Positions 1,713 to 23,983 of a stretch of 64,000 nucleotides of DNA are shown one piece after another; the first letter of the stretch is position 1, and every line of letters begins with the position of its first letter. Source of the DNA: Candidatus Curtissbacteria bacterium (GTDB taxonomy: Bacteria > Patescibacteriota > Microgenomatia > Curtissbacterales > GWA2-41-24); contig JANLHP010000026.1 of the NCBI GenBank assembly GCA_024654445.1, positions 16,733-80,732 on the forward strand. Reading direction: 5' to 3'. A program made the translations under genes and the position numbers. The notes below the pieces were generated by a model. It ran no database searches, was not told the DNA's origin, and was given only the letters and a program-made list of their open reading frames with translations.

Positions 1713-4700
1713 ATGATTAGCATTGTCGTACCTACGTACAACGAAAAATCGAATATAAAAAAGTTGCTTTCCAGAATCGAGAAGGCCATTCGAAGCCACC
1801 CTGAAGACGTAGATAAATACGAAATTGTAGTAATCGACGATAACTCAAAAGACGGCACTTGGGAAATCTTGCAAAGAGAAAAAAGCTCCAAAATTAAAGT
1901 ATTTAGAAAAGAAGGTAAACAGGGCAAAGCATATTCCCTAGTTGAAGGGTTCAAAAAGAGCTCCGGCAATATCTTGGTAATGATCGACGCGGACCTTCAA
2001 TATCCTCCAGAAGCCATACCCCAAATGTTAAAACTTTTAGATCATTCGGATATCGTAGTCGCTAATCGCGAAACGTACGAACACTCTAGGGTAAGAAAAA
2101 CACTGTCAAGAATTTATAAATACACCTTCGGGAAAATCCTATTTGGCCTAAGTTGCGATGTTCAATCTGGTCTGAAGGCTTTTAAGCGAGAAGTTTATCA
2201 CGCCACTACCCCCAACCCTAAATCTCCATGGTCGTTCGACCTTGAATTCTTGCACAAATCAAAAAACGCCGGCTTCACCATTAAAGGTTATGACATTGTC
2301 TTCGACAACCGAAAAACAGACGATTCAAAAATAGGCGTTCTAAGGGTTGGGACGGAGCTTGCGATCAATGCTCTAGTTTTGAGAACTAAAAACACACACC
2401 CTCTTACCATTCCTCCTAAACATGCGAACACAATGCATGGGGCAGGAGTAGGTTTTAAGTCACGAAAGTATGTGACCCATAGCACCTTGCCTCACTATAA
2501 TTCCGCGCTTCAAGGTTTTGTCCTTTGGCAAAAGCTGTTCATCCTAACCGCTTTTGTCGCTCTTGTTCTAGGCCTTTATCTGTCTTTGCACTTAACGGCC
2601 CTTATCATCATCGGCACACTCAGCGCGATTTACTTCTTAGACGTTCTGTTCAGCCTATTTTTGATAGTAAAGAGTTTACACTTTCCTCCGGAATTAACCA
2701 CAACGTCACAGGAAATAAACTCGTTAAAAAACAAAGATCTTCCAATTTACTCAATCCTTTGTCCTCTTTACAAAGAGGCGAATATCCTCCCTCAATTTTT
2801 GGACGCGATAGCAAATATCGACTGGCCAAAAGAAAAATTAGACGTTTTACTTCTTTTGGAAGAAGACGACCAAGAAACAGTTGAAGCGGTTAAAAAAATG
2901 GATCTGCCAAGTTACATACGTACTGTGGTAGTTCCAGACTCTCAACCTAAAACAAAACCCAAAGCCTGCAACTATGGATTGTCACTAGCAAAAGGAGAAT
3001 ACCTCGTAATTTACGACGCGGAGGACAGACCGGAGCCTTTTCAGCTTAAAAAGGCTTTTATCTCCTTCAAGAAAAACCCAAAAAACATAATTTGCCTGCA
3101 AGCAAAATTAAATTACTACAACCCTCACCAAAATCTTTTAACGAGATTGTTTACAGCCGAATACTCATTGTGGTTCGACGTAATTTTGCCAGGATTGCAA
3201 TCGATCAAAACGACAATTCCACTGGGAGGAACGAGTAATCACTTTAAGACGCCTCTTTTAAAAGAGCTTCACGGATGGGATCCGTTCAATGTAACAGAAG
3301 ACGCAGATCTTGGCGCGAGACTTTTTAAACACGGCTACAAAACCGCGATTATTGATTCGGTAACCCTAGAAGAAGCAAATAGCAGACCTAAAAATTGGTT
3401 GCGACAACGTTCACGTTGGATTAAAGGCTATTTCCAAACATACCTGGTACATATGCGAAACCCAATCGCATTTGTAAAAGAACACAAGTTCCACGCTTTG
3501 ATTTTCCAGTTAATTATTGGCGCACGCATATCGTTTATGCTGATTAACCCTTTCCTCTGGGCGCTGACGATCCTTTACTTCGTTATGAGAGCGCGAGTAG
3601 GGGCTGCCATAGAAGCTCTTTATCCTGCGCCGATTTTCTACATAGCAGTTATTTCTCTCGTTTTTGGAAACTTCATGTACATCTATAACTACATGATAGG
3701 CAGTGCTAAAAGAGGGCACTACGCCATAATAAAATACGTATTTTTGATTCCTGTCTACTGGTTAATGGCATCGGTTGCTTCATTCATCGCCCTTTATCAA
3801 CTTATCGTCAAACCTCACTACTGGGAAAAAACCGTTCACGGCTTCCATCTTGAAAAAGAAAACGATGAAAAATTAAAGCAACAAAAACCAGTAACTGAAC
3901 AAATACAAGCAGAAAAAAAAGAAATATCCAAACGTTTAAAATTCCGGGAACTTATTAAATCTGGAACTTTCTCTGGTGGCCTATTAGTTTCAGGAGCAAT
4001 AGTCGGCAATGTCTTGAATTTTGCATACAACGCGTATCTGGCTAGAACTGTTTCTACCGAAGACTTCGGACTTATAAGTCTTATAGGCAGCTTTCTATTT
4101 TTAACATCAATTCCTCTTAACGCGCTCGCTAGAACTGTATGTCACAAGAGTGCTTTTTACTTAGGCAAACACCAGATTGCCCTTAAAGGTTTCTGGGCCC
4201 ATACCAGAAAAAGAGCCATACTTGTTTCTCTCATCGTTACCACTTTATGGATTGCCCTAACACCTCTTCTTGCGAAGTTTTTTCATTCACCGTCCTATCT
4301 TCCTTTTATTCTATTTGCTCCAGTTTGGATTATAGGTGCGGCATCCGCAGTCGACGGAGGGTTTCTAAGCGGAAATTTGAAGTTTAAAGTTAACTCCTTA
4401 ATACTAGTTACAGACCCCCTCGTTAAACTAATATTAACCTTCGCTTTAATTACCTTAGGGTACCCTCACTTAGTTTATGCCGCAATACCTTTGGCTGTGT
4501 TTGCCTACTTTTTAATAGGATGGTTTTTTGCAAGTTCGATAAAAGAGGAAAGGCCAAACATAATCAGCCATGAGGCAACCCTAAAATTCCCAAGAGGATT
4601 CTTTGTGACATCAATTTTAATGGGTTTCACAACGATTGCCTTTTTGACTTTCGATATCATTCTCGCCAAACATTTTTTGGCTCCCGTGCTTGCCGGACAG

Positions 4701-6359
4701 TACGCGCTTATGGCGCTTTTTGGCAAAATGATTTATTTCGTAGGGAATCTTTTTAATCAGTTTATAAACCCCCTTGTTTCAAGAGAAGAAGGTGCAAGCA
4801 GAGACAGTAAAAAGGTATTTTATAAACTTTTTCTTGGATCGACCCTTGCAGGATTAGCAGCCTACATAGGTGTTGGAGTCTTAGGATTTATTACGGCGCC
4901 ACTTTTACTAGGAGAAAAAGCGCACGCAATAACTCATCTTCTGCCAGCTTATGGCATTGGAATGCTTGCTTTCTCTATTTCAACAAGTATCGTCACTTTC
5001 TATCAAATAAGAAAAAACTACATATTCGCTTACACCAGCATACTTTTGGCCTTTATCCAAATTGCCGGAATATATCTATTCCACGATTCGCTGGAACAGA
5101 TGGTTTCGGTGATGGCATTTATTGGCGGGCTCAACCTTGGAGCAATGCTGCTTTTACACTTTGCATATAAGCCATTTGCAGCAATTGTAAACAATCTTAA
5201 AAATCTCAAGAACACCCTTTCTCTCCAGAGAGAAGAATCCGAATCGGATGAGGGCAAACGCATTCTCATATTCAATTGGAGAGACACAAAACATGTTTGG
5301 GCCGGTGGAGCCGAAGTTTACGTACACGAATTATCAAAAAAAATGATCGAAAAAGGCTATCACGTCACCGTATTTTGCAGTAATGACCGCAAGTCGACTG
5401 CCAACGAATTTGTTGATGGAGTTGAAATCATTAGGCGAGGAGGCCACTATACTCTGTACATCTGGGCCTTTTTCTATTACATCACTAAACTTCGTGGAAA
5501 ATACGATCTTATCATCGACTCAGAAAACGGTATCCCATTCTTCACCCCTCTCTACGTAAGAAAGCCTCTAATCGGTCTCATTCACCATGTTCATCTAAAA
5601 GAAGTTTTCGACAGACATCTTCCATGGCCCTTGGCCAAACTGGCTCACTTTTTAGAATCAAAGGTTATGCCCATTGTTTACAGAAACACACAGATAGTTA
5701 CAGTCTCCAATTCTTCTAAAGAAGAGATAGAAAAACTTGGTTTAGGCAAAAAAATATCAATTGTAGTGATACATCCGGGCGTTGATCTTACCAAATTTAG
5801 AACGATGCAAAAAACCAAAGATCCTTCCATTGTTTACCTCGGAAGACTAAAGCCATACAAGTCTGTGGATAGGTTAATTACTGCTTTCTCCAAAATTTTA
5901 AAAGAGATACCCAATGCGACGCTCACGATTGCTGGCGACGGTGAAAGCAGGAAAGAACTTGAAATCCTGGCCAAGAGTCTTCGAATAGAAAAAGTCGTTA
6001 AATTTGTCGGCAAAGTTTCAGAACAAGCAAAAGTAGAACTTCTTGGAAAAGCTTGGATAGCTGCTCAACCCTCAAAAAGCGAAGGGTGGGGAATCACGGT
6101 AATCGAAGCAAATGCATGCGGAACACCTGTTATCGCATCCGATATTCCTGGGCTTCGAGACTCCGTTAAAAATCCCCACACCGGTTTATTGGTCACCTGG
6201 GACAATCAAGAAAAATGGGCGGAGGCTATGACTAAAGTTATTAAAGACGAACGCCTTAGAAAGGACTTATCAGAGCAATCGCTCGAATGGTCTAAAAACT
6301 TTAACTGGGAGAAAAATGCCGAACAATTAATAAAAGTTGCAAAGTTAAAAAATGAATAA
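1713..6359 (+). CDS. 1548-aa multidomain glycan synthase: Dpm1/GtrB-like GT2, TM linker, processive-type GT2 (DxD, TED, QxxRW), TM bundle, MOP/Wzx-like flippase domain, GT4
   Basis: aa1-230 VVPTYNE...IDDNSKDGT...IDADLQYPPE (polyprenol-P-sugar synthase signature). aa~340-600 YDAEDRPEP, VTEDADLG, QRSRWIKG (QxxRW). aa~740-1180 multi-TM region with Wzx/PST-like N-term (GNVLNFAYNAYLARTVSTEDFG...). aa~1190-1548 GT4 (EGWGITVIEANACGTPVIASDIPGLRDSV). Single uninterrupted ORF. Confidence 0.8.
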   Translation: MISIVVPTYNEKSNIKKLLSRIEKAIRSHPEDVDKYEIVVIDDNSKDGTWEILQREKSSKIKVFRKEGKQGKAYSLVEGFKKSSGNILVMIDADLQYPPEAIPQMLKLLDHSDIVVANRETYEHSRVRKTLSRIYKYTFGKILFGLSCDVQSGLKAFKREVYHATTPNPKSPWSFDLEFLHKSKNAGFTIKGYDIVFDNRKTDDSKIGVLRVGTELAINALVLRTKNTHPLTIPPKHANTMHGAGVGFKSRKYVTHSTLPHYNSALQGFVLWQKLFILTAFVALVLGLYLSLHLTALIIIGTLSAIYFLDVLFSLFLIVKSLHFPPELTTTSQEINSLKNKDLPIYSILCPLYKEANILPQFLDAIANIDWPKEKLDVLLLLEEDDQETVEAVKKMDLPSYIRTVVVPDSQPKTKPKACNYGLSLAKGEYLVIYDAEDRPEPFQLKKAFISFKKNPKNIICLQAKLNYYNPHQNLLTRLFTAEYSLWFDVILPGLQSIKTTIPLGGTSNHFKTPLLKELHGWDPFNVTEDADLGARLFKHGYKTAIIDSVTLEEANSRPKNWLRQRSRWIKGYFQTYLVHMRNPIAFVKEHKFHALIFQLIIGARISFMLINPFLWALTILYFVMRARVGAAIEALYPAPIFYIAVISLVFGNFMYIYNYMIGSAKRGHYAIIKYVFLIPVYWLMASVASFIALYQLIVKPHYWEKTVHGFHLEKENDEKLKQQKPVTEQIQAEKKEISKRLKFRELIKSGTFSGGLLVSGAIVGNVLNFAYNAYLARTVSTEDFGLISLIGSFLFLTSIPLNALARTVCHKSAFYLGKHQIALKGFWAHTRKRAILVSLIVTTLWIALTPLLAKFFHSPSYLPFILFAPVWIIGAASAVDGGFLSGNLKFKVNSLILVTDPLVKLILTFALITLGYPHLVYAAIPLAVFAYFLIGWFFASSIKEERPNIISHEATLKFPRGFFVTSILMGFTTIAFLTFDIILAKHFLAPVLAGQYALMALFGKMIYFVGNLFNQFINPLVSREEGASRDSKKVFYKLFLGSTLAGLAAYIGVGVLGFITAPLLLGEKAHAITHLLPAYGIGMLAFSISTSIVTFYQIRKNYIFAYTSILLAFIQIAGIYLFHDSLEQMVSVMAFIGGLNLGAMLLLHFAYKPFAAIVNNLKNLKNTLSLQREESESDEGKRILIFNWRDTKHVWAGGAEVYVHELSKKMIEKGYHVTVFCSNDRKSTANEFVDGVEIIRRGGHYTLYIWAFFYYITKLRGKYDLIIDSENGIPFFTPLYVRKPLIGLIHHVHLKEVFDRHLPWPLAKLAHFLESKVMPIVYRNTQIVTVSNSSKEEIEKLGLGKKISIVVIHPGVDLTKFRTMQKTKDPSIVYLGRLKPYKSVDRLITAFSKILKEIPNATLTIAGDGESRKELEILAKSLRIEKVVKFVGKVSEQAKVELLGKAWIAAQPSKSEGWGITVIEANACGTPVIASDIPGLRDSVKNPHTGLLVTWDNQEKWAEAMTKVIKDERLRKDLSEQSLEWSKNFNWEKNAEQLIKVAKLKNE

Positions 6360-7962
6360 AACAAATTTGAATATTGTTATTTTTGATTTAGACGATATTA
6401 AAAACCCCCTTCTTGGAGGAGGTCAAGCATGGGCTACTTTTGAAGTCGGAAGACGGTTAGCACAAAACGGTCACAAAGTTACTGTAATCTCTTCAAAATA
6501 CCCAAATTACAAAGACAGAACTCAAGAAGGCATTGACTATAAACATATAGGCATCAATACCAAATTTATAAAGTTAAATAACCTTTTATACCTTTTTGCT
6601 GCACCCCTTTATGCTATGAAGACCAAGGCGGACATAATCGTCGAGTGTTTTACTGCACCAGTATCAACACTTTTTACACCTCTTTTTACCAGAACCCCTG
6701 TTGTCGCTTTGCCCAGTATGTTCAACGCCCATGAATTTACCAAAAAATACCACTTACCTTTTCATCTGGTAGAGAGACTAGGAGCCAGATTCTACAAGTA
6801 TCTCTTGCCATATTCAGAAATTGACAGCTCTAAAATGAAAAAACTTAATCCAGGCATCAACTTTAAAATTGTCCCCCAGGGAGTTGCTAAAGAATACTTT
6901 GCGATCAAACAAAGAAAACCGGAACACATCCTTTTCTTAAGTAGATTAGATATTGAGCAAAAAGGTGTCGACCTTTTGCTGATGGCCTACGCTAAAGTTA
7001 GTTCAAAAATAAAATACCCACTTGTTATAGCTGGCCACGGCCCTGACGAGAAAAAAATTAGAGCCTTAATTAAAAAACTTGGCTTACAAAATAAAGTAAA
7101 AATGGTAGGCGCAGCTTACGGCAAAAAGAAATTCGATTTAATGGCCAAGGCACTCTTCGTAGCTTTCCCATCAAGACATGATGAAATGTGTCTCTGGTCC
7201 CTCGAGGCTCTAGCCGGAGGGTTGCCCCTCGTTGGTTTTAATCTACCGGAATCTAAATGGATGACTAAAGATATATCCCTGAAATCTAAAAGATTCAATG
7301 TGGACGAATACGCGTCCACATTACTCGAAGCGACTGATCCTGGCGTAATTGATCAGATGAGGACAAACGCAAGAACTTTTGCAAGAAAATTTAGCTGGGA
7401 AAAAGTTACAGCAGAATATGAATCGTTTTTTTATCAAATTTTAGAAAACGAGGGAACAGTAAAAGTACCAACACTTATCTCATACGAAAGACATATTCCG
7501 AAGATTTCGGATGAGGGCTTTCTTAGTTTTGCAGAAAGTAAAAAACATATACCTTTTAACATCAAACGCTTCTATTACATCACAGATGTCCAAAGGGGAA
7601 AAATAAGAGGAATGCACGCGCACAGAAAAAACCGTCAATTCGCGTTCTGTATTCAAGGAAAGGTAAAAATGACTCTCGACGACGGGTCAAGAAGAGAAGA
7701 AGTTATTTTGAACAAATCGAACCAGGGGCTTTATCTGGACAAAATGGTCTGGCACGAGATGACGGAATTTGAAAAAGGAACAACACTTTTAGTTATTGCA
7801 TCAGAATATTTTGAAAAAAAAGATTACATCAGAAACTATCAAGAGTTTAAACAGCTGGTTGAAAAGAAACATTTCAACCTCGGCATGGATGTTAGAGAAT
7901 TTGCGTCTTACCTTCTAAAATTACCGCTTGCTGCAAATCCAATCCCTTGGAGGATCAGATAA
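6352..7962 (+). CDS. GT4 glycosyltransferase fused to C-terminal FdtA/WxcM-like cupin domain (dTDP-4-keto-6-deoxyhexose 3,4-ketoisomerase-like)
   Basis: GT4 N-term and C-term motifs (LLGGGQAWATFEVGRRLAQNGHKV; FVAFPSRHDEMCLWSLEALAGGLPLVG). C-terminal ~150 aa: FNIKRFYYITDVQRGKIRGMHAHRKNRQFAFCIQGKVKMTLDDG...LYLDKMVWHEMTEF...LLVIASEYFEKKDYIRNYQEF, matching the FdtA/WxcM pattern. Overlaps upstream gene by 8 nt. Confidence 0.7.
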   Translation: MNKTNLNIVIFDLDDIKNPLLGGGQAWATFEVGRRLAQNGHKVTVISSKYPNYKDRTQEGIDYKHIGINTKFIKLNNLLYLFAAPLYAMKTKADIIVECFTAPVSTLFTPLFTRTPVVALPSMFNAHEFTKKYHLPFHLVERLGARFYKYLLPYSEIDSSKMKKLNPGINFKIVPQGVAKEYFAIKQRKPEHILFLSRLDIEQKGVDLLLMAYAKVSSKIKYPLVIAGHGPDEKKIRALIKKLGLQNKVKMVGAAYGKKKFDLMAKALFVAFPSRHDEMCLWSLEALAGGLPLVGFNLPESKWMTKDISLKSKRFNVDEYASTLLEATDPGVIDQMRTNARTFARKFSWEKVTAEYESFFYQILENEGTVKVPTLISYERHIPKISDEGFLSFAESKKHIPFNIKRFYYITDVQRGKIRGMHAHRKNRQFAFCIQGKVKMTLDDGSRREEVILNKSNQGLYLDKMVWHEMTEFEKGTTLLVIASEYFEKKDYIRNYQEFKQLVEKKHFNLGMDVREFASYLLKLPLAANPIPWRIR

Positions 7963-9059
7963 TGATACACATGACTACTTTCCAGAAAGAATACATCAGT
8001 CTTGAACCTATATTAATGAGTGCGGCCCGGAACACTCTTAAAAGCGGCCGCTACATATTAGGTAAAAATGTTGAAAAGTTTGAAAAGGACTTCGCCAAGT
8101 TCATAGGAACAAAATATTGCGTCGGCGTTGCAAATGGTTTGGAAGCATTACAGATATCTTTGATGGCGCAAGGAATAGGCAAAGAAGACGAAGTTATAAC
8201 AGTTTCAAATACCGCCGTAGCTACTGTCCTCGCGATAACTAACGTTGGCGCGACTCCAGTACTTATCGATATAGATGAGTATTACCACATGGACGTGGAT
8301 CTTTTAGAGAAAACCATCACACGAAAGACGAAAGCCATAATTCCAGTTCATTTATTTGGTCAATTAGCAGACATTGAAACAATCATAAAAATCGCAAAAA
8401 AACACAATTTAAAAGTTGTCGAAGATGCCTGTCAAGCTCACGGTGCCTCTTACAAAAACAAAAAGGCGGGTTCGTTTGGAGATGTTGCAGCTTTCAGTTT
8501 TTATCCAACTAAAAACCTCGGGGCTTACGGAGACGCGGGAGCAATAACAACGAATTCTAAAAAAATATACGAAAAATGCAAAATGATTCGAAATTACGGC
8601 CAAAAAAACAGATACGAGCATAAAATTTTGGGCCTTAATAGCAGACTTGACGAACTTCAAGCAGCATTTCTTATAGAGAAGCTCAAAAAATTAAATGCTT
8701 TGAATAAAAGAAGGACGCAAGTTGCCAAGCTCTATTTTAATCAACTTAAAAATATAAAAGGAGTGACACTCCCGGCAATCAGACAAGATTCTTTCCATTG
8801 TTTTCATCAATTTGTGATAGAAGCTCAAGACCGCAAAAATCTTATCGACTTTCTAAAAAGTAGAGGCGTGGAAACCTTAATACATTATCCAATTCCGGTA
8901 CATAAACAAAAATCATATAAGAATTACAACGGAATAAATCTTCCAAAAACTGAAAAAGCCGTAAAGAAAATTTTGTCTTTACCAATTAGTCCCTTTATGG
9001 CTGACAAAGAAGTCATAAAAGTATGCACTGAAATCAAAAACTTTTACAGATCAAAATGA
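7962..9059 (+). CDS. DegT/DnrJ/EryC1/StrS-family PLP-dependent nucleotide-sugar aminotransferase (FdtB-like)
   Basis: FSFYPTKNLGAYGDAGAITTN and ...NSRLDELQAAFL. GGAGG 8 nt upstream of ATG at 7962, which overlaps the upstream TAA (TAATG). The ORF-track start at 7947 is a TTG. Confidence 0.8.
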   Translation: MIHMTTFQKEYISLEPILMSAARNTLKSGRYILGKNVEKFEKDFAKFIGTKYCVGVANGLEALQISLMAQGIGKEDEVITVSNTAVATVLAITNVGATPVLIDIDEYYHMDVDLLEKTITRKTKAIIPVHLFGQLADIETIIKIAKKHNLKVVEDACQAHGASYKNKKAGSFGDVAAFSFYPTKNLGAYGDAGAITTNSKKIYEKCKMIRNYGQKNRYEHKILGLNSRLDELQAAFLIEKLKKLNALNKRRTQVAKLYFNQLKNIKGVTLPAIRQDSFHCFHQFVIEAQDRKNLIDFLKSRGVETLIHYPIPVHKQKSYKNYNGINLPKTEKAVKKILSLPISPFMADKEVIKVCTEIKNFYRSK

Positions 9060-9985
9060 AAAATATTAAAAGGACAGTAACTATTGGTATACCTGCTCAT
9101 AATGAAGAGAACAATATTGGGCTCTTGCTCGAGTCGATCTTAAGACAAAGACAAGGAAGCTATAAGCTCGAAAAAATTATTGTTGTGTGTGATGGCTGTC
9201 GCGACAAAACGGCAAAAATTGTGCGCCAATTTTCAAAATCAAATAAAGCGATCCTGCTCGTGAACGATGGAAAAAGATTAGGCAAAGGAGAAAGAATAAA
9301 CCAACTTTTCCAAATTACAAATTCTGACATTTTTATTAATTTTGACGCCGATATTACCTTGCCTGACACAGAGACCATAGCCAAGATGGTTAAGGGACTA
9401 TCCGATCCCAAAGTTGGGATTGTCAACGTAAAAAATACACCACTGGCACCCACCACATTGACAGAAAAATTAGCTAACGTTTATGAATGTTTTTGGTATG
9501 AAGTTACCAGAAATATCAATGACGGTAATAATGTTCACAATAGTACAGGAACTGCGTATGCGATTAGAAAAGAACTTTTTAAGAAGGTAACTTTGGAGCA
9601 TTGGGCAGTTGCGGAAGATCACTACTTATATTTTGAATGCGTCAAAAATGGGTTCACATTTAAATTTATTAAAAGTACAGAGGTCTTCTATAGACTTCCG
9701 AATAACCTCTCCGATTACATAAAACAGCAATCAAGATGGACCCTATCAAAGAAAAAGTTGGAAGATAATCTTGAGGATTGGACAAGCAAACACTACAGCA
9801 TCCCCAGAAACACGAAATATAAAGCTTATATGTACATGTTCTTAAAGCAGCCGATAATGATGCCTCTTGCAACTGTAATCCAATTGCTTATGAGGATTTA
9901 TAAATTTAGATATGTTAATTCTAACAATCCCGCTTGGGAGCCTATAAAGTCCTCGAAGAGAATGAACCTTACCACACTAAGATGA
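9056..9985 (+). CDS. GT2 glycosyltransferase (tandem paralog 1)
   Basis: N-term VTIGIPAHNEENNIGLLLESIL, DxD FDADI, C-term QQSRW-like motif. ATGA overlap with upstream gene. Confidence 0.75.
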   Translation: MKNIKRTVTIGIPAHNEENNIGLLLESILRQRQGSYKLEKIIVVCDGCRDKTAKIVRQFSKSNKAILLVNDGKRLGKGERINQLFQITNSDIFINFDADITLPDTETIAKMVKGLSDPKVGIVNVKNTPLAPTTLTEKLANVYECFWYEVTRNINDGNNVHNSTGTAYAIRKELFKKVTLEHWAVAEDHYLYFECVKNGFTFKFIKSTEVFYRLPNNLSDYIKQQSRWTLSKKKLEDNLEDWTSKHYSIPRNTKYKAYMYMFLKQPIMMPLATVIQLLMRIYKFRYVNSNNPAWEPIKSSKRMNLTTLR

Positions 9986-10881
9986 AACAATTAAAGAATA
10001 TTTCCATAGGTATATCAGCTTATAACGAAGGCAAGAATATTAAAAAATTGCTCGATGAGATCTTAAATCAAGAAAAGAATAGGTGGCGTCTTAGCGAGAT
10101 TCTTATCTATTGTGACGGATGTTCTGACAATACCATAAATCAGGCGCAAACCGTAAAAAACAGCCTGATCAAAATTATAGACGGTAAAAAAAGAATGGGT
10201 AAAACTTACAGATTAAAACAAATGTTCGAACAATTTTCAGGCGAAATTTTAATCATGTTCGATGGAGACATAGAACTTGGCGACAAAAACGTTGTTACGA
10301 ATTTAATTAAGCCATTTCGAAACAAAAACGTAATGCTTGTCGGCGGAAACTCGAAACCGTTTACACCCAGAACATTTTTCGAAAGATCTGTTTACTCAAC
10401 CTTTTCCGTCTTTTACGACTCAAGGCTAAAGATAAACGGCGGCAATAACATATTTGGTTGCACCGGCTCTGTCTTAGCAACTCGCGGCAATTTCGCAAAA
10501 TCATTAAACCTTCCAGATTTAATTAATGAAGACGCCTACATTTATCTAAAATGTCTCTCCAGAGGATTCCAATTTAAGTACGTCGACAAAGCAATTGTCT
10601 ATTATAAATTGCCGACAAATTTAAAAGATTATCTCAGACAACTTTTCAGGTCAGACCCCAGAGCCGTCACAGAAGAACTAGAAACCTATTTTGGGCAGCT
10701 TGTAGAAAGTGAATTTAATCGTCCTCCCAAATTCTATATAAGGGCAGTCGCCAAAGCACTTTTGAAAAATCCAACAGGAGCAAGCTTCATAGCAATAGTA
10801 AACGTCCTTTGCAAACCGTTTATTAAAAAAATATCGAAAAATTATAAACTGACATGGTTTACGGCAATCTCAACCCATTAA
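9982..10881 (+). CDS. GT2 glycosyltransferase (tandem paralog 2)
   Basis: ISIGISAYNEGKNIKKLLDEILNQ, FDGDI. ATG at 9982 forms an ATGA overlap with the upstream stop. The ORF-track start at 9934 lies inside the upstream gene. Confidence 0.75.
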   Translation: MKQLKNISIGISAYNEGKNIKKLLDEILNQEKNRWRLSEILIYCDGCSDNTINQAQTVKNSLIKIIDGKKRMGKTYRLKQMFEQFSGEILIMFDGDIELGDKNVVTNLIKPFRNKNVMLVGGNSKPFTPRTFFERSVYSTFSVFYDSRLKINGGNNIFGCTGSVLATRGNFAKSLNLPDLINEDAYIYLKCLSRGFQFKYVDKAIVYYKLPTNLKDYLRQLFRSDPRAVTEELETYFGQLVESEFNRPPKFYIRAVAKALLKNPTGASFIAIVNVLCKPFIKKISKNYKLTWFTAISTH

Positions 10882-10883
10882 AA

Positions 10884-12713
10884 ATGAAAATCCAAAATCT
10901 TTCGACTCAAAATATGATAAAAGGCCAAATTGGCAGCCTACTTAACAGGTGGCTCTTCCGCGGCAGCAAAAATGTTAAAAGAGTAACGATAAAAGTAGAG
11001 GGCGGAAGAAAAGTATTTATTAAACAACACACATTTAAATTCAAAGATATGGATTACTACTACTTGGTAAACGAGGCAAATGTAATTAAAACTTTAAACA
11101 AAGCAAAACATACTATAAAAGACAGAGTACATTTTCCAAAGTTTGTGGACTTTGTGGAAGAAGAAAACAAGGTCACGCTTAAAACGGAATACGAGGGAGG
11201 CAGAAAGCTAAGCGAGCTTACCTCCAAGCAAAGATTAGAAATACTGGAAGAATGCCTTCATTCAATCTGGACGACTTCTGCAAAGTTAAGAGACAAAAAA
11301 CTAAGTTATGTTGCTAAAAGAACAAATAACTCGTTTTTTGCCTTCCTTCCTTATTATATTGTGAGAGCTTTTTCAAAAGATTTAAAAAACTACTCGACTT
11401 ACTTTGGGTTAATATTCAAGTTTTACAAATACTATTTAGCCAGCTACTTTATTAACAATATCCCAACTCTAACACATAGAGACCTTGATCCTGATAACAT
11501 AAAAATTTCAAGAAACGGGGAAATATCAATTTACGATTGGGAGAATGCTGTAATGAGCGATAAACTTTTCGACCTTGCGTCGATTTGTGAAATTTACTCA
11601 AATGAAATTAAAAACGATCATCTTTCAAGGATGCTCCGAAACACACTCGAGACTAAATCTGAGATTGACAGACTTTTGGCTCTTTCCATTTTTAGCTCGA
11701 CCCAAAAACTGGCACTTTACCCTAAAAGGTCCAAGTCTTATAAAAACGCAAAGATTAATTTGGCGAATCTAGAAACTATTAAAAACAATTTAACGAGAGA
11801 CAAAAGAACGTTATTTGAAATCGTTAATTCTCTAACCCTTAACATTCTAAGCTTTACGTACCAAAAGATATCGCCCGAAAAAATCAAAAGCAGCAAAAAA
11901 ACCGTTTTATGCTATCACTCGATAAGTAATTCGTCTTGGAGATATTCAATGAGGAAAACAGATTTTGCAAGACAAATAGAATTTCTTAGAAAGAACTATA
12001 ATTTGGTGTCTCTCCCAACTCTGCTTGATAAAAGAACAAAAAGGGGTATCGCGATAACTTTCGATGACGGATACGCTGACGTTTATGAAAATGCCCTTCC
12101 GGTTCTCAAGGCTTATAAAGTTCCAGCTACAATTTTCGTCCTTGGTGATAGAGAGCACCCAAATAGAAAGGAACTTGATAATAACGAAAAACTTATGACA
12201 ATCTCGCAAATAAAAGAACTTCACGCCAAGGGGTGGGAAGTAGGCTTTCATACAAAAACACACTCAAAACTAGGCGATTTATCAGACCACGAGCTAAAAG
12301 CAGAGATTATTGATGGGAAAAGAGAACTCGAAAATAAACTTGGCTTTACCATGAAATATTTCGCGTACCCATTCGGAATTTATTCAAGAGAAATCATAAA
12401 CGCTGTCAAATCAGCCAGGTTTGAAGCTGCCTTTACAGTCGATGGGTCAGAAATAAAACATGGAAACAATCTCCTTATAAGTAGGGTGCCGACAGAGGGT
12501 GATCTTAGTGTCAACCAATTTGCAGCACTCATCTCGCCCATCGGGCTTATAATTAACCAGATTTTCATGTCAACTCTTAAGACAAAAGCCAAAACAACCA
12601 AGAAAATTTCGTGTATAATTTCCAGCGATCGCTGGAAATTACATCAGGCGAGCGAAGCGAGAGCTGATATAATAACTGACTTGAAAACACAATTTAAAAA
12701 AGAAAAAAATTGA
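10884..12713 (+). CDS. fusion protein: N-terminal protein-kinase-like/aminoglycoside-phosphotransferase-fold domain + C-terminal NodB-type polysaccharide deacetylase (CE4)
   Basis: HRDLDPDNIKISRNGEISIYDWENA (HxDxxxxN...DxE kinase-like catalytic/Mg motifs). C-term GIAITFDDGYADVYENALPVLKAYKVPATIFVLGD...GWEVGFHTKTH (CE4 motifs). ATG at 10884 follows the upstream TAA by 2 nt. Confidence 0.6.
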   Translation: MKIQNLSTQNMIKGQIGSLLNRWLFRGSKNVKRVTIKVEGGRKVFIKQHTFKFKDMDYYYLVNEANVIKTLNKAKHTIKDRVHFPKFVDFVEEENKVTLKTEYEGGRKLSELTSKQRLEILEECLHSIWTTSAKLRDKKLSYVAKRTNNSFFAFLPYYIVRAFSKDLKNYSTYFGLIFKFYKYYLASYFINNIPTLTHRDLDPDNIKISRNGEISIYDWENAVMSDKLFDLASICEIYSNEIKNDHLSRMLRNTLETKSEIDRLLALSIFSSTQKLALYPKRSKSYKNAKINLANLETIKNNLTRDKRTLFEIVNSLTLNILSFTYQKISPEKIKSSKKTVLCYHSISNSSWRYSMRKTDFARQIEFLRKNYNLVSLPTLLDKRTKRGIAITFDDGYADVYENALPVLKAYKVPATIFVLGDREHPNRKELDNNEKLMTISQIKELHAKGWEVGFHTKTHSKLGDLSDHELKAEIIDGKRELENKLGFTMKYFAYPFGIYSREIINAVKSARFEAAFTVDGSEIKHGNNLLISRVPTEGDLSVNQFAALISPIGLIINQIFMSTLKTKAKTTKKISCIISSDRWKLHQASEARADIITDLKTQFKKEKN

Positions 12714-12722
12714 GGTTGATAT

Positions 12723-14006
12723 ATGAACGCTAAAGGGTTAAAGCAATACAAAATAGGCATAGTAGGGACGGGCTTCGTCGCTCGAGGCCTCATGTTCTCT
12801 CTTAAATATCATCCAGAGTTGGAACTTGGTGGAGTACTTACAAGACGATCCATATCCCGGCTTGATGTTCCCGCCGCAAAAAAACTCATTACTCACGACA
12901 TTAACAAGTTGATCAAAAACTGCGACCTCATTGTCGAATGTAGCGGAGACGCTGTTCATGGAACAGATGTTGCAGAAGCAGTTTTAAAAGCAGGACTTCC
13001 AGTTGTCACCATGAACCCGGAATTGCAAATCACAACGGGCTCGATTCTTTGCCAAATGGGTACATTTATAGAAGCAGAAGGCGACCAACCTGGAACGATT
13101 GCTGCTCTTGATAATGAAGTCAGGAGCATGGGTTTCAAGCCGATCGTTTACGGGAATATTAAAAGATTTCTCAACCTAAGTCCAACAGAGGAAGAGATGG
13201 AATACTGGTCCAAAAGACAAGGAATTAGTATGGATCAGGTTACGGCTTTCACAGACGGAAGTAAGGTACAAATTGAACAGGCACTTGTCGCAAACGGTCT
13301 TGGAGCAACAATTGCAAATAGAGGACTCCTTGGAATTCCTTGTAAAGATTTAGAAGATGGCGCCCAAAGACTTGGAGAAGTCGCCGACGAAATCGGCAAA
13401 CCTATTAGCGATTATGTTCTTTCCCCCACATCACCCGCCGGAGTTTTCATTGTCGCCAAGCACGATCGCGAACAGCAACCATACCTTGAATATTTAAAAC
13501 TTGGCCCTGGGCCCAACTACGTCTTATTAAAACCATACCACCTTGTTCATCTGGAAATACTAAAGACCTTAACCAATGTATTAAAAGGCGACAGATCCTA
13601 CAAATTTAATAATGGTACAAATCCAACGGCGCAAGTTGTCGCAATTACCAAAAGAAAAATAGAAGCGGGGGAAACAGTCGGAAGGGGCCTAGGAAGTTTT
13701 GACATTCGCGGAGAAGCGGTAAAGATTGAAAACTATCCTGATTGTGTTCCAATCGGATTGATGCAAGACGTTAAATTTGTAAAAACGGTAGACGAAGGAC
13801 AGATTGTAAAATTCTCGGACGTAGAGCTTCCAAAGACAAGAGCGCTGGATCTGTGGAAGCTGATACTTGAGAATCAAAAAAATAAATCAGAAACTAAGAA
13901 AAAAATCTCAAGAATAAACGTTAGTCCCCGATCAAATGGAAAGAGAACTCCGAAAATTAACTTCTCCGTTACAAATTTACGAATCCAAAACAAAAGAAAA
14001 AAATGA
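12723..14006 (+). CDS. NAD(P)-binding oxidoreductase with C-terminal SAF domain (COG4091-like 'predicted homoserine dehydrogenase' architecture)
   Basis: N-term Rossmann GIVGTGFVARG. C-term VVAITKRKIEAGETV...IVKFSDVEL resembles a SAF/NeuB-C-terminal sugar-binding domain. GAGG RBS upstream. Confidence 0.45.
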   Translation: MNAKGLKQYKIGIVGTGFVARGLMFSLKYHPELELGGVLTRRSISRLDVPAAKKLITHDINKLIKNCDLIVECSGDAVHGTDVAEAVLKAGLPVVTMNPELQITTGSILCQMGTFIEAEGDQPGTIAALDNEVRSMGFKPIVYGNIKRFLNLSPTEEEMEYWSKRQGISMDQVTAFTDGSKVQIEQALVANGLGATIANRGLLGIPCKDLEDGAQRLGEVADEIGKPISDYVLSPTSPAGVFIVAKHDREQQPYLEYLKLGPGPNYVLLKPYHLVHLEILKTLTNVLKGDRSYKFNNGTNPTAQVVAITKRKIEAGETVGRGLGSFDIRGEAVKIENYPDCVPIGLMQDVKFVKTVDEGQIVKFSDVELPKTRALDLWKLILENQKNKSETKKKISRINVSPRSNGKRTPKINFSVTNLRIQNKRKK

Positions 14007-14935
14007 AACGAATTACATTGACTATCGGTATCCCTGCTTATAACGAACAAGAGAATATTTCCAGCCTCCTGGATTCGATTAGTGCCCAAAAACAGAAGTC
14101 TTACAAAGTTGAAAAAATTATAATTGTCGCCGACGGATGCACAGATTCAACTGAAGACATTATAAAAAAACGTATGAAATCAAATAAGCTAATTAATTTA
14201 ATGGTCGGAGCGAAAAGAGAAGGGAAAGCAAAAGCGTTAAATATAATTTATAAAAACAGCCAAAGCGACCTTCTTTTAACAATAGACGCGGACCTTATCT
14301 TTGTAGGGAATAATTCAATCGAAGAAATGGTAAAAACGATCAAACGTAATCCTAAAACAAATTTAGTCGGCCCCCGACACGTACCGGTACGGCCTAAATC
14401 ATTAATGGGAAAATTCGCGTACGTTTCATATTTAAGTTTTGAAGACGCTTTTTTGAAATTAAACAACGGCAATAATTTTTACGCAATGATGGCAACTGGT
14501 CTTATTAGAAAAGACTTTTATAAAACGTTCACCTACCCAGAAGGCACAATATCGGATCAATGCTATCTTTACGTATCAGCAACAAGAAACAACAAATACG
14601 GGTTCAAGCTGTCAAAAAATGCCCACGTGATGTTCAGAACAGTCAGCACCTTTGAAGATTGGAGAATTCTTGGGGTAAGGTCTGTAATTATGGACAAAGA
14701 AAATGTTGCAGGCTATTTTGGTCGGGACATCTTAAGCGAATTCAGTATACCTAAAAAACTATTTTTTACGTCTCTTTTAAAGTGGCTCATAAAGAGCCCG
14801 ATTTATACGACAGGTTCAATATTGATGAACATCTATATTCGTAAGTTTCCAAAACGAGAACTTATGCCTAAAAACGGGATGTGGGAACTCGCAAAATCAT
14901 CCAAAAAGAATATCCGATTAACAAAAACAATATGA
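14003..14935 (+). CDS. GT2 glycosyltransferase (tandem paralog 3)
   Basis: LTIGIPAYNEQENISSLLDSISAQ, IDADL. ATGA overlap with upstream gene. Confidence 0.75.
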   Translation: MKRITLTIGIPAYNEQENISSLLDSISAQKQKSYKVEKIIIVADGCTDSTEDIIKKRMKSNKLINLMVGAKREGKAKALNIIYKNSQSDLLLTIDADLIFVGNNSIEEMVKTIKRNPKTNLVGPRHVPVRPKSLMGKFAYVSYLSFEDAFLKLNNGNNFYAMMATGLIRKDFYKTFTYPEGTISDQCYLYVSATRNNKYGFKLSKNAHVMFRTVSTFEDWRILGVRSVIMDKENVAGYFGRDILSEFSIPKKLFFTSLLKWLIKSPIYTTGSILMNIYIRKFPKRELMPKNGMWELAKSSKKNIRLTKTI

Positions 14936-16053: not shown

Positions 16054-16701
16054 ATGGAAAGGGCTCTAAGGTTTACAACACTTATACCAACTGGTTTTGA
16101 GGAATTAACACTAGACTCTTTGATCTCCAGCGGAATCCAGACAGCTTACAAAATTCTCCATTTTGTTGCGCATGCAAGAGTGATGTTCCTAAGCTTATTT
16201 CTAAAATCTGTCGGCTACAACGTTTCTATACAAAAAGATTGTACGTTTGCAAACCCAAGGTCTATCGAGATCGGCAACCAAGTGTTTATCAACTTTGGCG
16301 TTAAATTCTTAAACACTCAGGAGGCTGGAGTAAAAATTGGCAACTTTGTAAACATTGGCCCGAAAGTGACGTTTATAACTGCAAACTATTTATTCAACGA
16401 TTGGATATACCCAATGAACTACAAGTCTCAACTAATTCATAGTCCCATCGAAGTTGCTGACGACGTCTGGATTGGAGCAAACGCGACTATCCTGCCAGGA
16501 GTAAAAATTGGAAGGGGAGCAGTAGTCGGTGCTGGAGCAGTAGTTACTAAAAATGTTCCGCCATATGCAATTGTAGGGGGAGTACCAGCGAAGGTAATCA
16601 AACACCGCTTTGATAAAGAGACAATAGAAGAAGCGATTAAAGTTGACTTCACGCCATTCTACAAAAAAGTTCCCAAAGATCACATTAGGCGAATAGACTA
16701 A
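16054..16701 (+). CDS. hexapeptide-repeat (LbH) sugar acetyltransferase
   Basis: [49 protein letters not shown]. Confidence 0.8.
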
Positions 16702-18597: not shown

Positions 18598-20133
18598 ATG
18601 ACTTTTAAGAAAATTGCTGTTTTTTTGCTGGTTTTTATAGCTTCGGCGTCACTGCTGATTCTTGGTATCAAGGGTAAAAGTGGAGACCCAGTTTTTTATC
18701 AATCAGAAGTCCAAACAGATAAAAATATTGGAGGCCCATTTGAATCTTCCAGCAGCAATTCTAGGTTTGCACTTGTAGAATCAATCGCAAAAGAAAGAAC
18801 CTTCTTCTTCAACGAGGAGAGAGCCTATTTTGCGGCGCCCGACCTAGTTTCTTATAACGGTACTTTCTTTTCTATTTTTACACCTGGAGTCTCTTTTCTT
18901 GGAGTACCTCTGTACCTGCTGGGAGCAAAAATCGGCTTTGCCCAGCTTGCGACATATTCTCTCAACATAATAGCAGGACTCTTGAATATATTTTTAGTCT
19001 ACAAGCTATCAAGAAAATTAGGCGCCGGGGCTTACAGCTCATTATTCTCAGGGACAGCATTTGTCTTTGCGACCCACGCCCTTGTATACGCCTTTACCTT
19101 AAGCCAGCACCACATTAGTACTGCCTTAATCTTATTTGCAATTCTAAACGCTATAGGTAAAAGAACTTTAGTAAAAGACATAACACTTGGTGCTGCTTTT
19201 GGATTAGGAATATTGATGGATATTCCTAATGTTTTCATGATGGCGCCAGTCATTCTTTATGCCTTCTCAAGAAGTATCAAGGTAGAAGACTTAGGAGAGA
19301 AAACAAAACTAGTAGTTAAACTAACAGTTTTGAGTTTCCTAATAGGCGTGATTCCTTTTCTGGCAACTTTTAGCTGGTATAACTACAAACTTACTGGCTC
19401 ATACCTCAAAATAGGCCAACTTATAGGCAGATCCGACTTTCCTGTAAAGGAAGAAAACAAAGCAACGCTAGTAATAGATCAAGAATCAAGCGAGCTGAGG
19501 TTATTAGAAGTGCCGTTTAACCCAAGAAGAATGTTGGAAGGCTTACCTCTTCTTATTGCAAGCAATGAAAGAGGAATACTCTTTTATAGCCCAATCACGG
19601 CATTTGGAATAGCCGGCCTTATCCTGGCAGTCAAATCCAAAAATCAACAACAGAAAACAGCAAGTACACTTGCAAGTTCCGTCATTTTTTCAAACCTTCT
19701 AATTTACGGTATGTTTGGTGATCCTTGGGGTGGTTGGTCTTTTGGCCCTAGGTATCTGGTTCCAACAGCAGCAATTCTTTGTGCTGGAATTGGCCCAATA
19801 ATTGAAAGATTTAAAAGAAAAATTATTTTTCTTATACTTTTGGCGCTCATTACTACCTACAGCATCTTTGTTAATACCCTCGGAGCGCTAACTTCTACAC
19901 AAGTACCCCCTAAGGTTGAAGCACAAGCCTTGCAAAATCCAATACCTCATACATATATTTACAATTGGCATCTCACTGAAAATAAATTCTCAGGCTCCTT
20001 AATCTACAATCTCTATTTTTCAAATATAATCCCAGCTCAAATTTATTTACTTCTGTTCTCCAGCCTATCCCTATTTTTTATGGTTTTAATATTTTCTGCA
20101 GCATATAAAGAAAAACCTATCATAGACAAATGA
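18598..20133 (+). CDS. polytopic membrane protein, GT-C-fold glycosyltransferase-like
   Basis: >10 predicted TM segments with an extracytoplasmic loop after TM1. Sits among polyprenol-P-sugar synthases. Confidence 0.45.
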   Translation: MTFKKIAVFLLVFIASASLLILGIKGKSGDPVFYQSEVQTDKNIGGPFESSSSNSRFALVESIAKERTFFFNEERAYFAAPDLVSYNGTFFSIFTPGVSFLGVPLYLLGAKIGFAQLATYSLNIIAGLLNIFLVYKLSRKLGAGAYSSLFSGTAFVFATHALVYAFTLSQHHISTALILFAILNAIGKRTLVKDITLGAAFGLGILMDIPNVFMMAPVILYAFSRSIKVEDLGEKTKLVVKLTVLSFLIGVIPFLATFSWYNYKLTGSYLKIGQLIGRSDFPVKEENKATLVIDQESSELRLLEVPFNPRRMLEGLPLLIASNERGILFYSPITAFGIAGLILAVKSKNQQQKTASTLASSVIFSNLLIYGMFGDPWGGWSFGPRYLVPTAAILCAGIGPIIERFKRKIIFLILLALITTYSIFVNTLGALTSTQVPPKVEAQALQNPIPHTYIYNWHLTENKFSGSLIYNLYFSNIIPAQIYLLLFSSLSLFFMVLIFSAAYKEKPIIDK

Positions 20134-21740
20134 CAATTAACATACAACTCAACAAACAAAGATTTCAAAAGGTTAAATCATTTTTAATCGAGAAAGACCT
20201 ACTTTTTATAACTATTTTTCTGACGGTAGCTGCCATCATTAGTTTTTTTATCTTTTACACAAGCGGCTTGGCGCTTGCGTACAACGACGCAAGGTCGCAT
20301 TTGGATATAGGCCGTAGAGTCGTAGAAGGCTTAAAACCTGGTATCGCTCAACTGGGATCAGTTTGGTTGCCCCTTCCTCACGTTCTAATGGTTCCGACTA
20401 TTTGGAACGATTTTATGTGGCACACCGGCCTTTCAGGCGCACTCATTTCGATGTTGTCTTTTGTGGGAACGGGAGTTCTTATTTATCTTATTTTAAAAAA
20501 TTTAAATGTAGGACCTTTAGGGAGAATTATCGCTGTTTTAATTTTTGCACTCAACATCAACATTTTGTATTTGCAATCAACTGCGATGACCGAACTCCTC
20601 TTGATATTCACAATGACAGCCGCAGTCTACGATCTCATGCAATGGGCAAAAACAGAAAGAATCGTATACGTAATAAGGTCATCTTTTTGGATAATGCTCT
20701 CAACTCTTGTTCGATATGACGGTTGGTTTCTCCTCATCTTCAGCGCTTTTATTATTGCAATTTTGCTTATAAAAAGTAGGGGATATAAAGTCACAGAAGG
20801 AACATTGATACTTTTTCTGACTCTGGGTGGATTCGGTATATTCCTTTGGGTTGTTTGGAATCTTCTTATTTTTGGAGATCCCTTATATTTCGCTTTCGGT
20901 CCTTTTTCCGCTAGAGCCCAGCAATCACAGCTTGAAGAAGCGGGAGTCCTTTCCACCAAAGGAAACATACTCTTCTCATTAAAAATGTACCTTTACGCGA
21001 TGGTTTACAACACCGGCGCATTCCAGGCAATTACAGGATTTGTAGGAGCCATCGTTTTATGGATGGATAAAAACACAAAGACGAGTGTACGAATAGCAAG
21101 CAGTGCATTAATGGCACCATTTCTTTTTAACGTCCTTGCTTTGTTCATGGGACATTCAGTCCTCTTCATTCAGGGTCTTTCGGGAAATACTTGGTTTAAC
21201 GTCAGGTATGGCGCAATGATGATTCCGACCGTGGCCGTGTTCACCGGGTATTTAATTTCCAAAGTCAAAGGTTTGAGGTATACTATCGCTGGACTATTTA
21301 TTGCTGTAACGTTTTTTGCTTTCGCAAATGTGGATGCGGTAACCATAGATGATGCGAGAGTTGGAAGCAGTCAGAAAAACGTCTCCGAAGTTAGTAGTTG
21401 GCTAAAACAAAATACCGAAGACGAGCCCGGCTTCATCTTGATATCGGCAGCTTCGCACGATGCCATAATTTTTTCCTCAGGTCTTCCAATGAAGAAATAT
21501 ATACATGAGGGAACCGGAGCTTACTGGGAAAGCGCAACCACATCTCCCGACAGGTGGGCAAAATGGATAGTGATGAGGACAAACGACACTAACGATTTGG
21601 CATTTAAATTGACACAAGAATCTGGACAGCTCGAAAAATATAACAAAGTCCAAAGTTTCCCGTTTGCAGACATTTACGAACTCAAGCGAGAGTATTGGCA
21701 ACAAGTAAATACAACACCAACATTAGGCAAACAAAAATGA
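20130..21740 (+). CDS. polytopic membrane protein, GT-C-like, with C-terminal soluble domain
   Basis: Multi-TM N-terminal ~400 aa followed by a hydrophilic ~130-aa tail. ATGA overlap with upstream gene. Confidence 0.4.
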   Translation: MTINIQLNKQRFQKVKSFLIEKDLLFITIFLTVAAIISFFIFYTSGLALAYNDARSHLDIGRRVVEGLKPGIAQLGSVWLPLPHVLMVPTIWNDFMWHTGLSGALISMLSFVGTGVLIYLILKNLNVGPLGRIIAVLIFALNINILYLQSTAMTELLLIFTMTAAVYDLMQWAKTERIVYVIRSSFWIMLSTLVRYDGWFLLIFSAFIIAILLIKSRGYKVTEGTLILFLTLGGFGIFLWVVWNLLIFGDPLYFAFGPFSARAQQSQLEEAGVLSTKGNILFSLKMYLYAMVYNTGAFQAITGFVGAIVLWMDKNTKTSVRIASSALMAPFLFNVLALFMGHSVLFIQGLSGNTWFNVRYGAMMIPTVAVFTGYLISKVKGLRYTIAGLFIAVTFFAFANVDAVTIDDARVGSSQKNVSEVSSWLKQNTEDEPGFILISAASHDAIIFSSGLPMKKYIHEGTGAYWESATTSPDRWAKWIVMRTNDTNDLAFKLTQESGQLEKYNKVQSFPFADIYELKREYWQQVNTTPTLGKQK

Positions 21741-23906: not shown

Positions 23907-23983
23907 TCGAAATAAGTTAATTGGTTGACTAAGTTAATTGAGTTAACTTTACTAACCGATCAACTTAATTAACTTAATTAACT

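Follow-up and report, generated by a model that had tools for sequence, protein, structure and literature searches.

How a glycosyltransferase comes to be joined to a sugar-nucleotide isomerase in a single protein, and whether such a protein transfers the sugar that its own isomerase domain helps to make, are questions raised by an open reading frame (ORF) in a 64,000-nucleotide stretch of DNA (the window) from a Candidatus Curtissbacteria bacterium, contig JANLHP010000026.1. The ORF at 6352–7962 encodes a protein of 536 amino acid residues (aa) in which a GT4 glycosyltransferase is fused in frame to a sugar 3,4-ketoisomerase of the FdtA family. From comparisons of sequence and gene context we consider it fairly probable that this GT4::FdtA protein is bifunctional, that it arose by the joining of two abutting genes, and that it takes part in making, and most likely also in transferring, 3-amino-3,6-dideoxy-D-galactose (Fuc3N) within a surface-glycan cassette. 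The FdtA/FdtB route to 3-amino-3,6-dideoxyhexoses is textbook chemistry; the fusion, which NCBI already contains with its domains annotated, represents a new variant, in domain architecture, of this known pathway.

Domains of the fusion protein and its predicted pathway

The fusion ORF and its parts are as follows.

6352–7962, + strand: GT4::FdtA fusion ORF, 536 aa; its ATG overlaps the stop codon of the upstream giant glycosyltransferase by 8 nucleotides (nt)
6352–7449, + strand: GT4 domain (retaining, GT-B fold), aa 1–366, from Pfam, AlphaFold2, Foldseek and invariant residues
7180–7206, + strand: D277-x7-E285, a variant of the donor-binding EX7E motif, from alignment to BshA and conservation; D277 is at the position that contacts the donor sugar
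7450–7482, + strand: short linker, aa 367–377, with no in-frame ATG, GTG or TTG
7483–7875, + strand: FdtA/QdtA-family sugar 3,4-ketoisomerase cupin, aa 378–508, from PF05523, PDB entry 2pa7 and a predicted beta-barrel
7615–7623, + strand: His422-Ala-His424, corresponding to the catalytic His49 and His51 of FdtA in a gap-free alignment to 2pa7
7753–7755, + strand: His468, corresponding to FdtA His95, from comparison of the VWHEM motif with FdtA and QdtA
7876–7959, + strand: C-terminal tail of 28 aa, low confidence; the GGAGG of the following degT gene falls within its final codons (…P W R I R)

A sequence-only reading of the window had proposed that the 536-aa protein combines these two activities, and a Pfam scan bears this out, with PF00534 and PF05523 present in the one ORF. 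The N-terminal two thirds match GT4 modules (PF00534 at aa 187–298, with 70 bits against a cutoff of 26, and PF13692; a match to PF13439 at aa 23–119 is weak), and PF05523 (FdtA, 'WxcM-like, C-terminal') matches aa 381–503 (152.6 bits, cutoff 23, E=6.4e-45), spanning positions 7–130 of the 131 in the profile. Pfam finds no Hexapep, left-handed beta-helix (LbH) or GNAT domain in the protein, and on its domain content it is not of the WxcM/FdtD type, its N-terminal partner being a GT4 rather than an acetyltransferase. The ketoisomerase/N-acetyltransferase FdtD of Shewanella denitrificans (4MZU; 99.7 bits against the C-terminal half of the fusion) is alike in that an FdtA cupin is placed C-terminal to another enzyme of the same pathway; its partner, however, is a left-handed beta-helix N-acetyltransferase that catalyses the last sugar-nucleotide step. 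An identical copy of the window protein is present in NCBI (P0001; 'MAG: WxcM-like domain-containing protein [Candidatus Curtissbacteria bacterium]', where MAG denotes a metagenome-assembled genome).

The junction between the domains is tight. The last GT4 helix (…YESFFYQILENE) passes over into the first cupin strand within some 11 residues, and the fusion has neither the GT4 C-terminal extension nor the fdtA initiator region. No start codon for separate translation of FdtA lies in frame at the junction, so the FdtA domain is not translatable by itself. An AlphaFold2 model of the whole protein (mean predicted local distance difference test score, pLDDT, 88.5; predicted template modelling score 0.69) is confident for the GT-B domain at aa 1–366 (pLDDT mostly >90) and, as a monomer, for the cupin beta-barrel at aa 400–508 (pLDDT 85–95), with a dip in confidence at aa 371–400 and a disordered tail at aa 509–536. 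The dip coincides with the strands swapped in the FdtA dimer, which exchanges N-terminal strands between subunits (PMC2943079), and a strand-swapped cupin dimer of the fusion protein would pair two GT4 domains.

In the GT4 domain the family-invariant residues G24, R198, K204 and E285 are all retained. In characterised GT4 enzymes the first acidic residue of EX7E contacts the donor sugar, the second Glu binds the ribose, and an Arg/Lys pair binds the pyrophosphate (PMC8760489); R198 and K204 are the phosphate-binding residues here, E285 is the ribose-binding second Glu, and the first acid is Asp277 instead of Glu, a conservative change found in most members of this subfamily (104/120). Foldseek with the full model returns GT4 matches only, which are uninformative on the donor sugar; the best is BshA 6n1x (E=1.8e-21, template modelling score 0.78), and matches to BshA, MshA and PimA as a group range from E=1e-21 to 1e-17 with template modelling scores of 0.75–0.79. 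These three are the closest solved structures and sequences, sharing the Arg/Lys clamp and the second Glu, but they are only 16–19% identical to the GT4 domain, use uridine diphosphate (UDP) or guanosine diphosphate (GDP) sugars, and their motif is the canonical E-x7-E.

The C-terminal part aligns without gaps over ~122 residues to FdtA of Aneurinibacillus thermoaerophilus (2pa7, E=2e-30), and also aligns to QdtA, FdtD, WlaRA and WlaRB, such that it is a cupin with clear isomerase homology rather than a generic one. The FdtA motif RGFHAHKK is matched by RGMHAHRK in the fusion, placing H422 and H424 at the positions mutated in the H49N and H51N entries (2pae and 2pak), and H468 lies in the motif MVWHEM; all three active-site histidines of FdtA are therefore present, which answers the alignment check that the sequence-only reading called for. 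The system of A. thermoaerophilus is similar in other respects as well, with an adjacent DegT C-3 aminotransferase and rmlA and rmlB nearby. It differs in that FdtA is a standalone protein of ~139 aa, whereas the window domain forms the last third of a GT4 protein, lacks a separate start codon and precedes the 28-aa tail.

The other genes of the predicted pathway are these.

7962–9059, + strand: DegT-family aminotransferase dependent on pyridoxal phosphate (PLP), FdtB/QdtB-like (C-3); PF01041, 391 bits, E=7e-117
23154–23906, + strand: rmlA-like thymidylyltransferase, short form of 250 aa; best match RmlA with 238 bits, below the equivalog cutoff
23984–24994, + strand: rmlB, dTDP-glucose 4,6-dehydratase (dTDP, deoxythymidine diphosphate); 475 bits against a cutoff of 365
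24991–26408, + strand: rmlC-like (PF00908) and rmlD-like (PF04321) genes, a competing dTDP-rhamnose-type branch from the same intermediate
16054–16701, + strand: hexapeptide-repeat acyltransferase, the sole N-acetyltransferase candidate, 7 kb from degT

In the proposed route RmlA and RmlB (23154–24994) would together supply dTDP-4-keto-6-deoxy-D-glucose, and the cupin, acting through H422, H424 and H468, would convert this with inversion at C-4 to dTDP-3-keto-6-deoxy-D-galactose. The DegT enzyme would then aminate C-3 to give dTDP-3-amino-3,6-dideoxy-D-galactose (dTDP-Fuc3N), any N-acylation being uncertain, and the retaining GT4 domain would most likely add Fuc3N in alpha linkage to a glycan begun by the giant glycosyltransferase encoded immediately upstream.

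The degT gene begins at ATG 7962 (corrected from TTG 7947), and this codon overlaps the TAA of the fusion by 1 nt (TAATG); its Shine-Dalgarno sequence GGAGG at 7949–7953 lies inside the last codons of the fusion (…P-W-R-I-R*), and the overlap and the placement of this sequence indicate that the two genes are translationally coupled. The candidate PLP lysine is K184 (8511–8513, motif SFYPTK184NL). The best matches in the PDB are to C-3 enzymes (7n63, 355 bits; WlaRG 5u1z, 340; QdtB 3frk, 316; DesV 2oga, 301), with which WbpE (274 bits) is listed, whereas the C-4 enzymes perosamine synthase, ArnB, WecE and PseC score <190 bits; the assignment of this gene as FdtB-like thus holds. The supply of the starting intermediate by rmlA and rmlB, also foreseen, is clear for RmlB, and RmlA is the best match of its gene at a score that falls under the cutoff because the protein is short. 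The rmlC-like protein (24991–25512, + strand) is divergent, with 32 bits to TIGR01221 (cutoff 156), 46 bits to PF00908 and a sub-threshold match to PF05523, which is the sole other PF05523 match among the window ORFs scanned with Pfam; it may be a 3,5-epimerase or a cupin isomerase of another kind.

The final N-acetylation is where the route proposed earlier, complete to dTDP-Fuc3NAc or dTDP-Qui3NAc (the N-acetylated forms of Fuc3N and of 3-amino-3,6-dideoxy-D-glucose, Qui3N), stands only in part. The hexapeptide protein at 16054 had been suggested as FdtC, a role that the evidence does not support: it is closer to O-acetyltransferases (VatA 82 bits, LacA 75, Mac 71) than to N-acetyltransferases (the Helicobacter pullorum enzyme 58, FdtD 56, QdtC 41), and it lies outside the fdt module. 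Where a hexapeptide gene stands between fdtA and degT, as fdtC does, in loci of Pseudomonas, Xanthomonas, Aquificales and Bdellovibrio, its product scores only 53–66 bits against the window protein. No convincing N-acetyltransferase and no other acyl- or formyl-transferase were found in the window, a hexapeptide gene is absent nearby in most fdtA-linked relatives, and the only other candidate sugar modifier in the window is a methyltransferase at 51580. The route to dTDP-Fuc3N itself is well supported by the predicted enzymes, while the acetamido end-product is not supported.

Origin of the fusion and the donor of the GT4 domain

The gene order in unfused relatives shows that the fusion arose from adjacent genes. 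In the closest unfused GT4 relatives the order is GT4, fdtA (138 aa), degT, with a 1-nt gap between GT4 and fdtA in locus L088 and a 4-nt overlap in L089, and the same order occurs in L004 (8-nt overlap) and L005 (1-nt gap); in four other loci (L003, L034, L035 and L040) the order is fdtA-degT-GT4. We interpret the abutting but separate GT4, fdtA and degT genes as the pre-fusion state, from which in-frame joining of neighbours made the fusion. Fusions of neighbouring genes are common in this cassette and in the GT4 family, and include GT4::GT2, GT4::GT4, GT4::epimerase, APH::deacetylase and APH::hexapeptide proteins, as well as the giant GT2-GT2-TM-GT4 protein upstream.

The sequence-only reading called for a search for the same fusion elsewhere, and eight further clusters of GT4::FdtA proteins were found (P0002–P0009, 53–67% identity; nine in total with P0001) in independent samples from ENA, Logan and NCBI. 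The linker varies between them, one having a 40-aa low-complexity insert, and a tail of 28–47 aa follows the cupin in every fused protein. The contig of one of these relatives (P0002, locus L090) has a class-I methyltransferase gene at 1686–2468 in place of degT after GT4::FdtA, although with a contig of 2.5 kb only the degT gene may lie beyond its end. The fusion is otherwise rare. It is present in none of 62 GT4-ortholog loci from JGI metagenomes, 13 of which have an adjacent fdtA, and in none of the top 150 matches from a full-protein search of 1.84 billion representatives at 50% identity, where the only two matches with two matched stretches (P0121 and P0258) are GT4+GT4 proteins. A scan of GTDB species representatives returned FdtA-domain matches only and no fused relative, although it is limited by its peptide seeds and missed the source genome itself; the search with the FdtA domain only, in which 164 candidates were scored, likewise missed the self-match and is unusable for counting fusions. 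The architectures seen among FdtA relatives, apart from the GT4 fusion, are standalone, LbH+FdtA, GNAT+FdtA and double cupin; the last is represented by P0271–P0295, proteins of ~290 aa with PF05523 plus Cupin_2 and ~180–190 bits against a single FdtA domain, which appear to be tandem double-cupin FdtA-like proteins.

In neighbour-joining trees of the GT4 and FdtA domains, which are star-like and unsupported, the fused proteins fall into 3–5 groups interspersed with unfused ones, and about three independent fusions would be as parsimonious as one fusion and about two fissions. The unfused GT4-fdtA-degT arrangement is widespread, and the fusion is an uncommon derivative of it and not a design feature of the pathway.

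Which sugar the GT4 domain transfers is addressed by comparing orthologs from this slot in cassettes with and without fdtA, scored in the flanks of the GT4 genes (1.5–6 kb). Five positions (123, 125, 176, 277 and 282) are conserved within but differ between groups of these GT4 proteins, and position 277 is, from the alignment to BshA, the first acidic residue of EX7E. It is Asp in all 17 of the fdtA-linked or fused GT4 proteins and Glu in all 11 of those linked to a different DegT (DegT', see below), and fdtA is nearby in none of the ~39 GT4 proteins with Glu-277. Some of the Glu-277 lineages are nested among relatives linked to fdtA (L022/L033, L036/L037, L027 and L074), and the association of Asp-277 with fdtA gives p=3e-10 in Fisher's exact test, uncorrected for shared ancestry. 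There is a parallel in WsaF, a dTDP-rhamnose transferase of the Geobacillus stearothermophilus S-layer glycan (2X0D/2X0F), in which the first EX7E position is replaced, the second Glu is kept for the deoxyribose, and the motif has been proposed as a donor signature (PMC2943079). WsaF is GT-B and GT4-like and uses a dTDP-sugar, although the replacement is by Pro, the enzyme is not fused to a sugar-modifying enzyme, and no significant sequence match between it and the window GT4 is reported. The covariation of Asp or Glu at position 277 with fdtA, in marking the fdtA-linked cassettes with the D-x7-E variant, leads us to infer that the fusion GT4 domain most likely transfers the pathway product, a Fuc3N-type sugar, and argues with moderate confidence that donor specificity in the GT4 slot follows the adjacent sugar module.

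Some of the cassettes with Glu-277 form a variant in their own right. A different DegT, DegT' (~30–41% identical), follows the GT4 gene immediately in 11 of the 62 JGI loci, and the arrangement of a Glu-277 GT4 followed by this gene and no fdtA is seen in L038, L039, L041–L043, L050, L057, L062, L067, L079 and L080, and also in L021. DegT' may represent a C-4 aminotransferase version of the module slot.

The strongest alternative, which we regard as possible though clearly less likely than a pathway-dedicated transferase, is that the fusion is incidental: the GT4 would be a core enzyme with an unrelated donor such as a UDP- or GDP-hexose, joined to fdtA by neutral read-through in a compact genome, and the Fuc3N produced through FdtA and DegT would be transferred by a variable downstream GT2 enzyme. 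Several observations weigh in its favour and against transfer of Fuc3N by the fusion. First, the GT4 ortholog (45–67% identity) lies directly after the giant glycosyltransferase in every case, with or without fdtA. Secondly, in 15 of the 62 JGI loci, with flanks of at least 1.5 kb on both sides, the GT4 adjoins neither fdtA nor DegT, and outside this set L020 has neither module and L022 has a GT4::GT2 fusion; orthologs of 50–62% identity in the same slot have no fdtA within 1.5–6 kb in L020, L022, L028, L030, L060, L078 and L085. Thirdly, the association at position 277 is confounded by phylogeny, and GT4 proteins with Asp-277 but no nearby fdtA exist (L060, L028/L078, L030 and L085), so that Asp is necessary but insufficient for fdtA linkage in this sample. 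The nearest solved GT4 enzymes take UDP- or GDP-sugars, the fusion is rare, and neighbour-gene fusions are commonplace here; the GT4 could be a core enzyme using another donor. Set against these points, the donor-contact residue switches between Asp and Glu with the presence of fdtA even inside mixed clades, GT4, fdtA and degT remain contiguous in the four loci where their order has changed, and the fused state recurs in at least three groups of both the GT4 and FdtA trees. This covariation weakens the view of the GT4 as a core enzyme without ties to the fdtA module, a view that is kept as the main rival to a Fuc3N transferase.

What a Fuc3N-transferring fusion would gain from being a single protein is a separate matter. 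The sequence-only reading had described isomerase and transferase as physically coupled, which is so to the extent that they are one protein, albeit in a rare derivative and for steps that are not consecutive. The pathway can do without the fusion, as the genes remain separate in most relatives, and because DegT acts between the two fused activities simple channelling between the fused domains is impossible, and a kinetic benefit would need a ternary assembly. The benefit is thus probably at most stoichiometric co-expression and co-localisation, with a dimeric cupin pairing two GT4 domains. A bolder proposal, which we think doubtful, is that the fusion and Asp-277 together mark a transferase dedicated to dTDP-Fuc3N or dTDP-Fuc3NAc, with the FdtA dimer scaffolding two GT4 domains and, by way of translational coupling, DegT into a small metabolon. 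If this were true, the metabolon would deal with the labile 3-keto intermediate where Patescibacteria assemble the glycan, and the first EX7E position (Asp or Glu) would be a determinant from which the use of 3-amino-sugar donors by GT4 enzymes could be read.

Taken alone the fusion is an annotation-level result. Its greater value is as a 'Rosetta stone' that ties one highly conserved GT4 of Patescibacteria to the Fuc3N pathway, and the fusion and the Asp/Glu switch at the donor site together provide a concrete, testable prediction of GT4 donor specificity, which is the most useful outcome of this comparison.

Configuration at C-4 and activity of the isomerase domain

Whether the product would be Fuc3N or Qui3N depends on the configuration at C-4, and here the third active-site residue is informative. 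The position of FdtA His95 is reported to hold His where the isomerase inverts C-4 and Arg where it retains the configuration (PMC2943079), a rule taken from that review and then verified on PDB sequences: FdtA has VWHEM, wild-type QdtA (4o9e) has LVWREM, and the fusion has MVWHEM, with His at position 468. This histidine and the H422/H424 pair are kept in all nine fused proteins and in every cassette relative. The presence and conservation of the triad predict an active, FdtA-type domain with a galacto product, and the His at the FdtA His95 position favours Fuc3N over Qui3N; of the earlier proposal, the amine has support and the acetamido sugar does not.

An isomerase like QdtA, retaining the C-4 configuration and leading to dTDP-Qui3N or Qui3NAc, is an improbable alternative, although not without points in its favour that weaken the assignment of Fuc3N. 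QdtA of Thermoanaerobacterium thermosaccharolyticum (4O9E) shares the fold and the His pair, and its similarity to the fusion (101 bits) is nearly equal to that of FdtA (109 bits), so that overall scores do not separate the subtypes; the position of FdtA Arg15, which is Tyr17 in QdtA, is Glu388 in the fusion and matches neither; and QdtB-type aminotransferases take both epimers (PMC2943079). Since neither the overall score nor the Arg15 position discriminates, the stereochemical call rests on one residue, H468, which agrees with FdtA and differs from the Arg of wild-type QdtA.

That the cupin is a non-catalytic module, binding a dTDP-sugar or serving in dimerisation of the glycosyltransferase, is very improbable. 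Cupins are often recruited as binding modules, but every fused form keeps the three active-site histidines and is 40–50% identical to active enzymes, the gene directly downstream in the window encodes a dedicated C-3 aminotransferase, which requires the 3-keto product, and the window ORFs scanned with Pfam contain no second FdtA gene. An artefact of sequencing or assembly, in which a stop codon was lost or a frameshift introduced between two genes of a MAG, is scarcely credible even though the genes abut or overlap by a few bases in relatives, such that a single-base error could join them, and the exact protein is known from a single contig, because eight other fused clusters come from independent samples with differing linkers, the internal start codon is absent, and the loss of the initiator Met on the FdtA side and of the C-terminal extension on the GT4 side is the mark of a clean deletion-type join and not of a point error.

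The surrounding surface-glycan cassette

The finding also points to a large conserved surface-glycan cassette of Patescibacteria (Microgenomates-type), which on its gene content spans most of the window; to our knowledge the cell envelopes of the organisms that carry it are almost uncharacterised. It comprises a sortase, a multi-domain glycosyltransferase of about 1550 aa, the GT4, a variable amino-sugar module, GT2 enzymes, a kinase/deacetylase and GT-C-like proteins. The gene at its head is the following.

1713–6359, + strand: giant protein of 1548 aa, GT2+GT2+membrane+GT4, cassette head, which the GT4 slot always follows

The giant protein, which contains a membrane or flippase-like segment, stands first in the cassette of most related loci, with 42–58% identity; L020 has it as two genes (738 + 800 aa), and L021 shows the C-terminal half only. 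A sortase gene (255–824, + strand) closely precedes the cassette, an arrangement shared with L001, L003 and L020, which hints at an association of the glycan system with sortase-anchored surface proteins.

To the right of the degT gene one fused protein combines an APH-like kinase with a polysaccharide deacetylase (10854–12713, + strand), as in L003; L005 has the two as separate genes (12409–14107), and the L001 kinase is joined instead to a hexapeptide transferase (8200–9978). An oxidoreductase of the DRL_cat / NAD_binding_3 type follows at 12723–14006 (+ strand), with counterparts in L001 (15035–16339) and L020 (9172–10452), where it accompanies rmlA/B/C-like genes. The adjacent genes at 18598–20133 and 20130–21740 (+ strand) encode a pair of proteins of ~510–540 aa with no or a weak PMT_2 match in Pfam; a comparable pair closes the cassette in L001–L005, L021 and L022, and these proteins may be GT-C-like transferases.

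The segment at 23154–64000 is mostly glycan machinery and includes two UDP-glucose-dehydrogenase-like genes, a GDP-mannose dehydratase, a GT2-GtrA protein, several PMT_2 and YfhO membrane proteins and a Polysacc_synt_3 flippase. Embedded in this machinery is a gene for an aspartate/ornithine carbamoyltransferase (32625–33554).

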